In this document: positions 39,901 through 56,907 of the stretch, piece by piece | How the letters are laid out: every line of letters begins with the position of its first letter | Numbering within the stretch: position 1 is the stretch's first letter | Source: Pelagomonas calceolata | Taxonomy: Eukaryota | Length of the DNA: 64,000 nucleotides | Assembly (NCBI GenBank): GCA_918797485.1 | Contig: CAKKNE010000002.1 | Coordinates: 6,014,001 to 6,078,000 of the forward strand | Direction: 5' to 3' | The notes under the pieces: model-generated | The model's database searches: none | What the model was told of the DNA's origin: nothing | What the model saw: the letters and a program-made list of their open reading frames with translations, nothing else | Translations under genes and position numbers: made by a program

Positions 39901-40109
39901 GGCAACTCTCCGAGGCATCGCTATGCTGCCGAAGTGATCGCTGCGGTCAAACGTGAGACTAGTTGGGCTGCCTTTGTTTCTAAAGTTGCGCTCTCTCCAG
40001 CCAGAGAGACTGCTTTTATCAGCTGCTACGCTGCCGCTGTGGTCGCATGGGTCAACGCTTGGTCTCAGTAGTCCGCCGTGGTCTTATACTAACAGGTGCG
40101 ACGCGCAGC

Positions 40110-41045
40110 ATGGCTGAATTGGCGGCGTGCGAGCCATTTTATGCGGCACCCAGCGGGGGGACGACTGCCGCGTCCTACGCACACCAAGCGCACGCACCGT
40201 CCGGCTTCCACGAGTACACATTAGTAGGAAAGAGAGACGCCGGCCGCGACTCGAAACTGCTCACGTTCGCGCTGCCGGACACAATGCCGACGCTCGGCGC
40301 GAGCGTCATCTCGGGAGTAAAAGTTAAGCAGGAGGTCGCGGGCGAGGAGCTCGACAAGAGCTATTCGCCGACGTCGCCGGCCGAACGAACCGAGACCTTC
40401 GATCTTTTGGTGAAGGCCTACGCCCCGCGCAAGGGCGGCGGCCTCGGCGCGTGGCTCTGCGCGCTGGAGCCGGGCCAGAACGCCTCGATGAAGGTCAAGG
40501 GCGCCAAAAAAATCGTGGACGGCGCGCCGCTCGCGAGGAATCGCTTCAGGCGGATCGGGATGCTGGCGGGCGGGACGGGCGTGGCACCCTTCATGCACCT
40601 CGTCGCCACCCTGCTCGCGGATCCGGAGGACGCGACGCTGCTGGACCTCGTCGTGTCGCACCGGGAGCCGCAGGACGCGCTCTTGGACGCGGAGCTCGCC
40701 GCGCTGGCGGCCGCGAGCGCTGGCCGCCTGCGCGTGCACCACACGTTCTCGCGCGTCACGGAACCCGCGGCGCCGCCGCCGGCCGCGCGCTCGACCGGTG
40801 GAACGGTCTTCGCGTCGACGGGCGCCGGCCGCATCGACGACGCGCTCGCCCGGGCGATGCTGCCGTCGCCGTCGGAGGACGACGTATTCATTCTCGTCTG
40901 CGGCACGGACGGCTTTGTGGGCGACATGGCGGGCCCGATCGAGCGCGTCTACGACGCCGCCGGCAAGAAGTCCAAGGTCCAGGGGCCCACGTTGGGCGTG
41001 CTCGGGCGGCTCGGCTTCCGGCCGGAGCAGGTGTTTAAGCTCTAA
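40110..41045 (+). CDS. NADH-cytochrome b5 reductase family oxidoreductase
   Basis: KSYSPTS, FDLLVKAY, GMLAGGTGVAPF, ILVCG, LGF..EQVFKL. Confidence 0.9.
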   Translation: MAELAACEPFYAAPSGGTTAASYAHQAHAPSGFHEYTLVGKRDAGRDSKLLTFALPDTMPTLGASVISGVKVKQEVAGEELDKSYSPTSPAERTETFDLLVKAYAPRKGGGLGAWLCALEPGQNASMKVKGAKKIVDGAPLARNRFRRIGMLAGGTGVAPFMHLVATLLADPEDATLLDLVVSHREPQDALLDAELAALAAASAGRLRVHHTFSRVTEPAAPPPAARSTGGTVFASTGAGRIDDALARAMLPSPSEDDVFILVCGTDGFVGDMAGPIERVYDAAGKKSKVQGPTLGVLGRLGFRPEQVFKL

Positions 41046-41550: not shown

Positions 41551-43081
41551 ATGTCGAGCTTCCCGTTCGGCAAAAAGAAAGCTTCTATCAATTGGGCGGA
41601 TGAGGACGACTCCAGCGACGACGAGAAGGGAGACGACTCGACCGGGCCGGACGAGCCCGACGTGCCCAGCTCGGACTCCGAGGACGAGGCCGACGCCGCC
41701 GCCGCCGCCGAGGAGTCGGAGGAGGAGCAGGACGCCTCCGACGACGACGAGGCCGAGAGCTCGGAGGAGGACGAGCCCGCGCCCGCCCCCGAGGTAGCGC
41801 CGACCGAGGAGAAGCCCAAGCCGCCGCCGCCGAAGCAGCTCACGAAGAAGGAGCGCAAGGCCCTCAAGGCGAAGGAGCTCGACGACCTCGACGCGCTGCT
41901 CGCCGCCGAGGGCCTCGCGCCGCAGGAGGCGCCCGCGCCCGCGCCCGCCGCGCCGCCCGCGCCGGCGCCGCCGGCCGCCGACGACGGCGACGCCAAGAAG
42001 AAGAAGAAAAAGAAGGGGCGCCGGCCGTCGGCCAAGGCGGACGAGCCCGCGGCGCCGCCGCCGCCCGCCGCGCCCGCCGCGCCGGCCGACGTCAAGGCGC
42101 TCCTCGCCAAAAAGGCCGCCGCCAGCAAAGGATCGAAGTCCGGTGCGCGCGCGGCGTCCCACGCAATTTCCTCAACTCCGTGGCGCAATGGATAGCGTAT
42201 CAGACTTCGAATCTGGGGGTTGCGGGTTCGAGTCCCGTCGGAGTTGTTGTTCGCTTGATGGACTGGAAATCTGAAGGTTATGAGTTCGAATCTCATATCG
42301 GTTTCACCGCGGTACTTGGACTCTTGCAAGATAGTGTGGCCGAGTGGTTAAGGCGGTAGACTTGAAATCTACTCCCGTAAGGGTCGCAGGATTGATTCTC
42401 ACCAATCAATGCGCTTTCGAACCCTGTCACTATCGCGCACGTTGATGATGTGGCCGAGTGGTCTATTAACCTGAGATGGTTAGACCCTAGGCGCTGGTTT
42501 TAGGCACCAGTCTTCGGGCGTGGGTTCGAACCCCACCATCATCACTTGAGTTCAATTCCGCACATTTGTATCCGTGGCCGAGTTGGTCTAAGGCGTTGGA
42601 TTTAAGCCCCAATCTCTTCGGAGGCGTGGGTTCGAACCCCACCGGATGCAATTTGGACCGATTGGCGCAACGGTAGCGCGTCAGATTCCAGTCCTGAAGG
42701 TTACGTGTTCGAATCACGTATCGGTCACACAAAAGTCGCGGGCGCCGCCGCACGGAGTTTCCCGAAACTCACGCGTCCCCCGAACGCAGGCGGCGGCTCG
42801 GCCATGTCGAAGGAGTCCGTCGCGGAGGCGAAGAAGCGCGCCGACGCGTTAGCCAAGAAGAAGAAGGCCGCTGAGGTACCGCGGCCGCGTCCTTAAATCA
42901 CGGCAAGGGGGTGTAGCTCAGTGGCAGAGCGTCCGCTTTGCATGCGGAAAGCCCAGGGTTCAAACCCCTGCTCCTCCAGCCTTACGTACGCCGTCGGTAC
43001 CGGGTTCCCCGAACTCACGCGTTTCCCCCTTCGCAGAAAAAGAAGAACAAGGCCAAGGGCAAGGGCCCGCAGCAGCGCTGA
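41551..43081 (+). CDS. Acidic/Lys-rich protein of unknown function; tRNA host gene; exons 41551-42142, 42790-42875, 43037-43081
   Basis: Introns GTGCGC..ctcac..CAG (42143-42789, phase 1) and GTACCG..ctcac..CAG (42876-43036, phase 0) give a continuous ...KGSKS-GGGSAMSKESVAEAKKRADALAKKKKAAE-KKKNKAKGKGPQQR*. Confidence 0.8.
42174..42246 (+). tRNA. tRNA-Arg(TCG)
   Basis: AACTCCG/CGGAGTT acceptor stem; TCAGA-CT-TCG-AA-TCTGG; GCGGG-TTCGAGT-CCCGT. Confidence 0.95.
42256..42304 (+). pseudogene. tRNA-Trp-like 3' half with an apparently inverted anticodon loop
   Basis: TCTGA-AGGTT-ATGAG-TTCGAAT-CTCAT-ATCGGTT parallels the 3' half of the tRNA-Trp at 42656; no D arm or 5' acceptor strand. Confidence 0.6.
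42330..42435 (+). tRNA. tRNA-Ser(TGA) with 25-nt non-canonical intron 42391-42415 (position 53/54)
   Basis: GATAGTG/CACTATC acceptor, G73; GTAGA-CT-TGA-AA-TCTAC; long variable arm; T arm GCAGG|insert|TTCGAAC-CCTGT. Confidence 0.9.
42444..42544 (+). tRNA. tRNA-Leu(TAG) with 23-nt non-canonical intron 42466-42488 (D loop, ~21/22)
   Basis: GATGATG/CATCATC acceptor, A73; CTGGT-TT-TAG-GC-ACCAG; removing the insert restores GCCGAGTGGTCTAAGGC. Confidence 0.9.
42568..42650 (+). tRNA. tRNA-Leu(TAA)
   Basis: GTATCCG/CGGATGC; TTGGA-TT-TAA-GC-CCCAA; long variable arm; GTGGG-TTCGAAC-CCCAC. Confidence 0.95.
42656..42727 (+). tRNA. tRNA-Trp(CCA)
   Basis: GACCGAT/ATCGGTC; TCAGA-TT-CCA-GT-CCTGA; ACGTG-TTCGAAT-CACGT. 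Confidence 0.93.
42907..42978 (+). tRNA. tRNA-Ala(TGC)
   Basis: GGGGGTG/CTCCTCC with the G3:U70 alanine identity pair; TCCGC-TT-TGC-AT-GCGGA. Confidence 0.95.
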
Positions 43082-43353: not shown

Positions 43354-44178
43354 TTATCGGTCCGCGAGCGCGGCGTCGATACGCCTCCGCTCCTTCGCAG
43401 ACAGGGGCGCCCAGCCGCCCGCGACGAGCCCGTCGAGCGTCACGCCGGCGAAGTGCGTCCGGTGCAGCGAGACGACCTCCAAACCGCGCGCGGCGCACAT
43501 CTTGCGGATCTGCCGGTTCCGGCCTTCCGTGAGCGTGAACTCGAGGAGCCGCGGCGCCTTCGCGTTCGGCGCGCGCACCTCGCAAGGCTTGGTCCTGGCG
43601 ACGAGGGGCTTGGCCTTGCGGTCGCGCTGCGCCACGGTCTCGATCGTCACGCCCTCGCGCAGCGCCCGGAGGTCGTCCGCCGTCGGCGCGCGGTCCACTT
43701 CCACCACGTAGCGCTTCTCCTTCTTCTGCGACGGCCGCAACAGCGCCTCGCACGCGCGCCCGTCGCTCGTCAACAGGAGGAGCCCCGTCGACGGCTTGTC
43801 CAGGCGGCCGACCGTGAAGACGCGCTGGTCGAGGTCGTCGAAGCCGCCCCGGGCGATGACGTTCGACGCGTCGTTGCGGTCGGACGTGCAGGTCACGCCC
43901 GCCGGCTTCCAGTACTTGAGGTACAAGAACGCGTCGCTCGACTTCAGGTCCGCCTTCGCCGCCTCGCGCGCCTCCCAGACCTGGGTCTCGCCGTCCAGGC
44001 GGACCTCGCTGCCGCGCTCCACGGGCGTCCGGCCGTCCGCGACCACGCCGTCGACCGTGACGCGGCCGTCGGCGATGGCCGCGTCGGCCTTGCGCCGCGA
44101 CAGGCCGGGCAGCAGCTTGTTGAGGCGCACGGCCAGCCCCGACGCCTTCGCCGCGAGGAGCAGCACGAAGAGTCGCAT
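43354..44178 (-). CDS. RsuA/RluF-family pseudouridine synthase with S4 domain, signal-peptide-bearing (likely plastid)
   Basis: MRLFVLLLAAKASGL; SRRKADAAIADGRVTVDG; KPAGVTCT; VGRLDKPSTGLLLLT; LTEGRNRQIRKM. Confidence 0.9.
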   Translation of the reverse strand: MRLFVLLLAAKASGLAVRLNKLLPGLSRRKADAAIADGRVTVDGVVADGRTPVERGSEVRLDGETQVWEAREAAKADLKSSDAFLYLKYWKPAGVTCTSDRNDASNVIARGGFDDLDQRVFTVGRLDKPSTGLLLLTSDGRACEALLRPSQKKEKRYVVEVDRAPTADDLRALREGVTIETVAQRDRKAKPLVARTKPCEVRAPNAKAPRLLEFTLTEGRNRQIRKMCAARGLEVVSLHRTHFAGVTLDGLVAGGWAPLSAKERRRIDAALADR

Positions 44179-55792: not shown

Positions 55793-56907
55793 ATGTATCG
55801 ACCTTGGCTGGTGCTCGGCGTGGCGGCCGCGCTGCGGCTCCCCGCCGCGCCGTACATAAGTCAGGACTGCAACGCGGGCCGGCGGGCGCCGCGCGCGCCC
55901 GAGCGGCCGCCGCCGAGCCGGCGCGACTGGAACGACTTCATTCGCTTGGTGCAACACGCGCACGGCCAGATCGCCGAGCCGGCGCGGACCGGCGTCCTTC
56001 ATTGCTCTCGTGGCCTAATGGACAAGGCGTCGCCCTCCTAAGGCGAAGATTGCGGGTTCGAGTCCCGTCGTGAGTAGCGTCGACCGGTCCGCGCCCGACG
56101 CAGGTGACGAGTCAGCTGGCCACGGGCGACATCAAGGCGCTCTGCGCGGCGCGCGCGGCCGCGGCGACGGACCAGATCCGGGACGTGGCGGCGACGGGGT
56201 CGCGGCGGTGCCTCGTCGAGCTGGGCGCGCGCGAGGGCCGCGTCGCGACGGTGCTCGCCGACCTGGGCTTCGAGAAGACCTACCTCGTCGACCGCGACCA
56301 CCCGACGTCCGACGAGGCGCGGGCGACGCGGGGCGAGCGCGTCACGGCGGATTTAAGGCACTTTGATGTGGCGGCGCTCACGGACGCGTCCTGCGTCGTC
56401 GCCAAGCACGTGTGCGGCGTCGCGATGGACTACTCCGTGCGCATGGTCGCGCGCGCGCGGCCCGAGGTCTTTGCGTTCGCGCCGTGCTGTTATTTTTCCT
56501 GCGAATACGACGCGTACCCGGGTCGCGAGCTGCTCGCGGAGCTGGGAGTCTGCAGGGACGCGCGCGACTTCGACATGCTCAAGAAGCTCACGCAGTGGGG
56601 GCCGAACCAGTTCTCGCCGTCCACCGAGGCCGCGGGCCGGTGGGCTATGGACTTGATTGATGCGGGGCGCGTCGACTTTCTGCGGCGGAGCGGCCTCGAC
56701 GCGGCGGCGCTGCCCTACGCCGACGCGCGGCTCGCGCTCGACGGGGCGCTCGAGTGCACGCTGCTGGTCGGCTGGCGGCCCCCGGACGCGGACGCGGATG
56801 CGGCGGCGGCGTCGCCCTGGGATACGTACCAAGACGAAAACGGCACGCCGTACTACCACAACCGCGAGACGGGGGAGACGGCGTGGACGCTGCCCGGCGA
56901 GTCCTGA
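55793..56907 (+). CDS. Trm13-like SAM-dependent methyltransferase with C-terminal WW domain; exons 55793-55981 and 56104-56907; tRNA host gene
   Basis: LVELGAREG, LVDR, ADLRHF, AKHVCGVAMD, APCC; WW domain PWDTYQDENGTPYYHNRETGETAWTLP; a GC-AG intron at 55982-56103 joins EP|VTSQL in frame. Confidence 0.7.
56004..56076 (+). tRNA. tRNA-Arg(CCT)
   Basis: GCTCTCG/CGTGAGT; GCCT-AATGGACA-AGGC; TCGCC-CT-CCT-AA-GGCGA; GCGGG-TTCGAGT-CCCGT. Confidence 0.93.

Follow-up and report, generated by a model that had tools for sequence, protein, structure and literature searches.

Sense-strand tRNA arrays in spliceosomal introns of Pelagomonas calceolata and their possible release from host-gene transcripts

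How does a cell make transfer RNAs (tRNAs) whose genes lie, several at a time, inside the introns of a protein-coding gene? The question is raised by a window of 64,000 nucleotides (nt) from the marine eukaryote Pelagomonas calceolata (contig CAKKNE010000002.1, positions 6,014,001 to 6,078,000; guanine-plus-cytosine content 61-77%), in which six tRNA genes occupy two introns of one host gene and a seventh lies in a predicted intron of another. To our knowledge, nuclear tRNAs are held to be products of RNA polymerase III (Pol III), with the trypanosome tRNA-Sec as the exception, and small nucleolar RNA (snoRNA) host genes are the system in which intronic small RNAs are made from RNA polymerase II (Pol II) transcripts. 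The arrangement in P. calceolata is real, conserved, and unusual, an instance of intron-hosted RNA in which the cargo is tRNA and carries inserts of archaeal type. We lean towards the view that Pol II transcripts of the host gene serve as tRNA precursors, as they do for intronic snoRNAs.

Rfam recognizes seven tRNAs in the window, all on the forward strand, and the six of the host gene reach 45.7-66.4 bits, where the gathering score is 29. The first intron of the host (42143-42789, GT-AG, 647 nt) contains tRNA-Arg(TCG) at 42174-42246, tRNA-Ser(TGA) at 42330-42435, tRNA-Leu(TAG) at 42444-42544, tRNA-Leu(TAA) at 42568-42650, and tRNA-Trp(CCA) at 42656-42727, together with an orphan tRNA half; the second (42876-43036, GT-AG, 161 nt) contains tRNA-Ala(TGC) at 42907-42978. 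An earlier note, made from the letters of the sequence alone, had placed five sense-strand tRNAs in the first intron and Ala in the second, with spacers as short as 5-8 nt, and both statements hold: the gaps between successive tRNAs of intron 1 measure 83, 8, 23, and 5 nt. In both introns the first tRNA begins 31 nt past the donor, and the last ends 62 nt (intron 1) or 58 nt (intron 2) ahead of the acceptor. The array tRNAs have no encoded CCA. ARAGORN calls four of the six (Arg, Leu(TAA), Trp, and Ala) and misses Ser(TGA) and Leu(TAG) because of their inserts, both being called once the inserts are removed; relaxed runs of the program gave noise. At the gathering score Rfam reports only tRNAs and no box C/D or H/ACA RNA, and the array gene is therefore likely to resemble a snoRNA-type host without being a member of that class.

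The host gene consists of exon 1 (41551-42142), exon 2 (42790-42875), and the coding part of exon 3 with its stop codon (43037-43081), all on the forward strand. Removal of the two introns leaves an open frame of 240 amino acids (aa), the continuous frame that had been expected, which begins with an acidic sequence rich in proline, alanine, and lysine. This exon 1 protein belongs to no Pfam family and finds solely chimeric or low-complexity matches in searches, while the Atlas places the host protein in unnamed eukaryote clusters of low recognition value. Relatives of the gene were recovered by a scan of metagenome contigs, which reduced 439 pattern matches to nine loci (L001-L009); none occurred in the prokaryotic or viral contigs searched. 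In L005, which matches exon 2 at 88% of nucleotides and the spliced host protein at 73% identity (166/228), exons 1, 2, and 3 are joined at both predicted points, so that the splice model for the array appears to be right. L006, 96% like L005, has exons 1 and 2 joined and then an intron in which Ala(TGC) and Arg(TCG) lie 10 nt apart. Four independent assemblies (L001-L004) present exon 1, the donor, Arg, and the start of Ser in the order of the window, and the intron-hosted arrangement thus recurs among relatives, a comparison that the earlier note had proposed.

The relatives also reveal how fluid the arrangement is. The Ala-bearing intron of L006 (968-1154) has its donor shifted 15 nt downstream relative to the window and a 5' end nearly that of the window, for which sliding of the intron or an independent insertion are candidate explanations, with Arg(TCG) a candidate for having moved in. 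L004 lacks Leu(TAG) and contains a further tRNA-bearing intron with an identical 5' end. In the same contig, positions 1920-2395 hold a Trp 5' half, a palindrome and acceptor, and a 73-nt exon unlike exon 2 of the host; its second intron consists of about 130 nt rich in hairpins (with no Rfam match), Leu(TAA), and another Trp 5' half. In this region L004 is probably chimeric, with sequence from a second host gene. We infer from their ends that L005 and L006 resemble transcripts. The final 39 nt of exon 1 recur directly ahead of the start codon in L005 (191-229) and L007 (185-223), for which assembly mixing or a back-spliced exon circle are candidate causes. L007 is chimeric, being unrelated after residue 112, and was left out of all counts.

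The two host introns appear to be akin to each other. The similarity of their ends, pointed out in the earlier note, extends beyond the branch site and acceptor (the last 40 nt are matched in 1 of 5000 shuffles), but the CTCAC...CGCAG motif itself also occurs at sites without tRNAs, L008 among them, and related intron ends may be a general trait of the introns of this lineage. Close to the donor, GCGTC occurs 11-12 nt downstream in introns 1 and 2, in the predicted intron of the second host when its GC donor is used, and in L004 and L006. It was considered as a Pol III promoter element and set aside, its position being fixed relative to the donor (+11/+12) and not to the tRNA. A bacterial promoter scan was uninformative and was not used. 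The introns also contain palindromes of a kind found in pelagophytes, which, with the high GC content, the marine origin of the matching samples, and homologs in eukaryotes, suit a Pelagomonas-like alga.

The signals by which Pol III transcription is ordinarily recognized are unevenly present. A run of four Ts (T4) occurs within 50 nt downstream of none of the seven window tRNAs. The earlier statement that no such run follows any of them stands at that distance, with the qualification that the array has a single sense-strand T4, located in the anticodon arm of Leu(TAG), 63 nt downstream of Ser. The next T4 after Trp, Ala, and the seventh tRNA, Arg(CCT), is 1534, 1283, and 417 nt away, respectively. 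As T4 is found in only 8.5% of random 50-nt stretches of window DNA, its absence carries weight only when set against the terminator expected of a Pol III gene. Ser(TGA) has no intact B box, since the box is split by an insert. In five window frames (2577 codons), the array tRNAs read codons as rare as TCA (4/152 Ser), GCA (10/453 Ala), CGA (19/308 Arg), CTA (1/247 Leu), and TTA (14/247 Leu). Five of the six array tRNAs thus read rare A-ending codons, for which a modest Pol II output would suffice.

Under the reading that we prefer, Pol II would read through the introns of the host, RNase P and tRNase Z would make their cuts at every cloverleaf, either in the pre-mRNA or in the intron once excised, the tRNA splicing endonuclease would take out the inserts at positions 53/54 and 21/22, and CCA would then be added. 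Such a route would need neither internal promoters nor terminators and would tolerate packing at 5 nt, introns in the B box, and moves of tRNAs between introns. It accounts for the sense orientation, the missing terminators, the 5-nt spacers, the broken B box, and introns dominated by tRNA. The processing enzymes are on record: in the annotation table of P. calceolata (14,639 of 16,667 gene rows, the portion to which all statements on this table refer), PRORP, RNase Z, two endonuclease subunits, and Sen54 are present (PMC9481584). The available text of the same genome paper gives 0.45 introns per gene with both GT and GC donors, and the word 'tRNA' does not occur in its main text (PMC9481584).

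Absent from the earlier note were the inserts within the tRNAs, the orphan half, and a third tRNA-bearing intron. Ser(TGA) carries a 25-nt intron at 53/54 (42391-42415) and Leu(TAG) a 23-nt D-loop intron at 21/22 (42466-42488), while Leu(TAA) is intronless in the window. Five inserts were tested (those of Ser(TGA) and Leu(TAG) in the window, of Ser in L004, and of two copies of Leu(TAA) in L004), and all five form a central helix of 4 base pairs (bp) between 3-nt bulges with an intron helix h' of 5-6 bp, a fit reached by chance in 0, 0, 8, 5, and 3 of 20000 shuffles. The outer helix h has only 0-1 bp, which assigns the motifs to class HBh'. All are placed away from the usual position 37/38, at 53/54, 21/22, or 20b/21, and the hairpin of the Ser intron shows a compensatory pair change in L004. 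Taken together, the inserts appear to be ectopic tRNA introns of archaeal type in the HBh' form, as in Cyanidioschyzon merolae. The two Leu(TAA) copies of L004 have differing D-loop introns (1793-1812 and 2272-2292) with an identical helix-forming end; as the window copy has none, introns come and go among close relatives.

A second host and the poly(A) reads extend the pattern beyond the array. A gene for the tRNA methyltransferase TRM13 (PF05206, E 1e-16) lies at 55793-56907 on the forward strand, and tRNA-Arg(CCT), called by both Rfam and ARAGORN, is located at 56004-56076 on the same strand inside a predicted intron of 110 or 122 nt, with the donor at 55982 (GC) or 55994 (GT) and the acceptor at 56103. 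TRM13 homologs run across the gap unbroken; in the choice of donor, P0008 favours GC (188 vs 179) and P0010, P0011, and P0012 favour GT. Prokaryote-style gene callers report the downstream exon of TRM13 only (267 aa). Thus all seven window tRNAs are sense-strand in three predicted introns of two genes. Reads came from one sample, for which roughly 6% of each of three stranded poly(A) runs was covered. The depth on the Arg(CCT) gene was 195, 80, and 97 in sense and at most 2 in antisense, and most of these reads stem from other tRNA loci. Among the six distinct 3' flanks listed, four have CTCAC or CTCAT within 30 nt (three have CTCAC alone; 2.7% per flank is expected by chance, and CTCAT was included post hoc), CGCAG is reached in two, and T4 in none. 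A donor-like GT occurs in two of the three 5' flanks listed, and two hold GGCGTC. At another locus, a tRNA-tRNA joint with a 21-nt spacer was crossed by 42, 25, and 23 reads in the three runs and also occurs in a contig of X1. Elsewhere in this organism, too, tRNAs are therefore carried in sense by long poly(A)-selected RNA, close to splice signals, and the sense-intronic habit looks to be genome-wide.

The explanation that competes best is that the tRNAs are nested Pol III units, which we regard as a serious possibility while rating it short of probable. Pol III would start inside the intron ahead of the first tRNA, either from internal boxes or from an upstream element with TFIIIB, produce a polycistronic precursor, and stop at a T3 or a non-canonical signal; the host gene would lend open chromatin, and intron placement would spare the mRNA. 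Both the A box and the B box are intact in six of the seven tRNAs, including the first tRNA of all three introns, and T3 runs occur 31 nt past Trp and 44 nt past Ala. There is precedent as well: polycistronic tRNAs without poly(T) are reported for Chlamydomonas, and in moss T4 is given for only 40% of tRNA genes (PMC3531208); the intronic tRNAs of Caenorhabditis elegans are treated as Pol III units that the host promoter licenses (PMC4999229). At least five Pol III subunits, Brf1, Bdp1, and La are listed for P. calceolata, so that the enzyme, TFIIIB, and La are all represented (PMC9481584). However, Arg(CCT) is not followed by even a T3 within 275 nt, and nested Pol III units do not predict strict sense orientation (7/7, with antisense depth of at most 2), introns that hold little but tRNA and splice signals, or a common upstream motif that tracks the donor instead of the tRNA.

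Several further points weigh, as do the intact boxes, against release from a Pol II transcript. The splice support for the array comes from contigs of relatives and not from junction reads of the organism itself, and traces of mixed assembly are apparent in L004-L007; L005 could represent an allele that lacks introns instead of a transcript. The host ortholog is unbroken in L008 and L009, which have neither coding introns nor tRNAs, indicating that the link between tRNA and host is not ancient. For the TRM13 intron no junction read was found at a depth of 0-2 on both sides, which speaks neither for nor against its splicing, and the TRM13 mRNA, at a depth of only about 30-45-fold, would be a weak source of tRNA, as nested Pol III units would allow. 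The flank counts are counts among the rows listed, with some consensus values of only 0.63-0.81. More fundamentally, an intron is present in pre-mRNA whatever it contains, and poly(A) reads that cross a tRNA are no proof of a precursor role; the reads show transcription through the tRNAs and not the source of the mature tRNA. A search for TFIIIC, suggested in the earlier note, found no hit by name in the P. calceolata table (PMC9481584), which lends weak support to a Pol II route; SNAPc is likewise missing by name there, and La is listed. In C. merolae, disrupted tRNAs are made without TFIIIC from upstream TATA-like elements (PMC3728597), and loss of TFIIIC therefore need not mean Pol II.

It is very improbable that the tRNAs are inert passengers, that is, pseudogenes or a cluster derived from an organelle or virus that landed in the intron. 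Organelles and large viruses typically have such tightly packed, mixed clusters, and the orphan half and the A31.C39 mismatch of Trp resemble decay; Leu(TAG) is absent from L004. Conservation argues otherwise: across the window and L001-L004, Arg varies at 0 of 73 nt and Ser at 2 of its first 61, compared with 5 of 31 nt at the start of the intron just upstream and 5 of 25 in the Ser insert; the Ser intron has compensatory pairs, as does the T-stem of the orphan; and L006 has almost the same Ala and Arg although the coding DNA is about 72% alike. No exact Trp match was found in the viral or prokaryotic contigs searched, and the best listed phage match is 79%, to Arg only, so that these contigs provide no apparent sign of a viral or prokaryotic origin of the array; the missing encoded CCA also speaks against the passenger account. 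Least likely, though by a small margin, is that there is no intron (the gene ending after exon 1 with intergenic tRNAs, or the locus being misassembled), which would suit the unspliced frame of 214 aa and the lack of own junction reads but not the joining of exon 1 to exon 2 in L005 and L006, the matching C-terminus encoded unbroken by L008 and L009 (57-58% identity; 123/215, or 57%, for L008), or the exon 1-Arg-Ser order of four independent assemblies.

The orphan half raises a separate question about tRNA-Trp. The element at 42260-42304 on the forward strand consists of an 8-nt leader, one bulged base, and a Trp-type 3' half (tRNA positions 38-73) at 42269-42304, upstream of tRNA-Trp(CCA). 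When it is combined with the Trp 5' half (42656-42691), the product is a Trp(CCA) whose anticodon stem is complete, and ARAGORN calls Trp(CCA) on the joined halves of both the window and L004; the local Trp of the window, unlike the joined form, has the A31.C39 mismatch. The leader of the orphan pairs with the Trp anticodon arm (within 42656-42694) over 14 bp, and over 16 bp in L004 (0/2000 shuffles), although 6 of these pairs follow simply from the orphan being a 3' half. The T-arm of the orphan is kept, with one compensatory change in its T-stem in L004, and within the leader variation is confined to the bulged base, which is A in the window and C in L001-L004. The Trp 5' half of L004 has no 3' half behind it, in a contig that may itself be chimeric. 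The two halves are accordingly a candidate for a circularly permuted tRNA-Trp gene, a proposal that we put forward only tentatively; assembly of the tRNA from a 3' half lying upstream and a 5' half lying downstream, with three other tRNAs between them, is similarly doubtful. The window Trp is whole, the junction of the halves has no motif like a bulge-helix-bulge (the duplex of 14-16 bp has one bulged base and no 3-nt bulges), and the gap between the halves is 351 nt, whereas the intervening sequences of known permuted tRNA genes measure 1-74 nt (PMC3978253). The alternative to permutation is a kept remnant of a tandem duplication. The orphan was also considered as a Ser(GGA) gene and rejected, given a C at position 37 in four of five sequences and a short variable arm. 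A fold of the whole intron formed neither Trp acceptor stem and was not trusted.

Comparison with known systems places the locus among precedents that each share a part of it. The RNase P RNA of Drosophila is intronic, host-dependent, and made by Pol II (PMC4287351). As there and in snoRNA hosts, a stable sense RNA lies in an intron without a Pol III terminator, and hosts can change between lineages; unlike in either, the cargo is ordinary tRNA, with up to five per intron. The tRNA-Sec of Trypanosoma brucei is made by Pol II, and the paper names intron-encoded tRNAs as further candidates (PMC2943599). It shares with P. calceolata a tRNA embedded in a Pol II unit, but is one special tRNA between the genes of a polycistron, whereas the arrays described here consist of standard tRNAs in cis-spliced introns. 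In C. elegans 56% of intronic tRNAs are sense and release by splicing is called a theoretical possibility (PMC4999229), and in Arabidopsis there are 19 sense intronic cases (PMC6152437). Both resemble the present locus in lying inside the intron of a protein gene with the pairing kept between relatives, yet these are single genes, modelled as Pol III units in C. elegans, as opposed to mixed arrays that are all sense and lack terminators. The Chlamydomonas clusters (PMC3531208) share the close spacing and the lack of poly(T) behind many tRNAs, but a 2026 review describes islands of mixed orientation there (PMC13578239).

In the same review, tRNA genes of the protists and fungi surveyed are almost exclusively organised as singletons, and its available text gives non-canonical tRNA introns for red algae and a cryptophyte nucleomorph and for no stramenopile nucleus (PMC13578239). 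The closest likeness for the inserts is C. merolae, with D-loop and T-arm introns, HBh' motifs, and a broken B box (PMC3728597), and possibly its permuted tRNA genes (PMC3978253), if the window Trp is permuted. The C. merolae tRNA genes differ in having a TATA-like element and a T-stretch, where the array has no terminator, and in intervening sequences of 7-74 nt with no other tRNA inside (PMC3978253), compared with the 351-nt gap here. A literature search, with subscription papers and database annotations outside its range, found no report of tRNA arrays in stramenopile spliceosomal introns and none of ectopic tRNA introns in stramenopiles. Each ingredient is separately known, and the combination was not found in the literature searched.

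On its flanks the host gene is accompanied by a cytochrome b5 reductase-like gene (40047-41045, forward strand) and an RsuA-like pseudouridine synthase gene (43354-44178, reverse strand). L008 and L009 also adjoin an RsuA-like pseudouridine synthase gene (70% identity), in an orientation differing from that of the window.

The release of tRNA from spliced introns has been named an open possibility (PMC4999229, PMC2943599), and this locus makes the question directly testable through its compact introns, missing terminators, one tRNA without a B box, and public RNA data. Standard tRNA finders under-count genes here, ARAGORN having missed two of six. Whichever polymerase makes the tRNAs, the HBh' introns add another eukaryotic lineage to those with ectopic tRNA splicing. 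A wider scenario, in which most or all nuclear tRNAs moved into purpose-built introns, TFIIIC was lost, tRNAs came to be made by Pol II, and archaeal-type introns were gained, is conceivable but on balance unlikely. Should the array tRNAs indeed be cut from Pol II transcripts, this would be an undescribed eukaryotic route to ordinary tRNAs, and would couple the tRNA supply of a widespread marine eukaryote to the transcription and splicing of its mRNAs.

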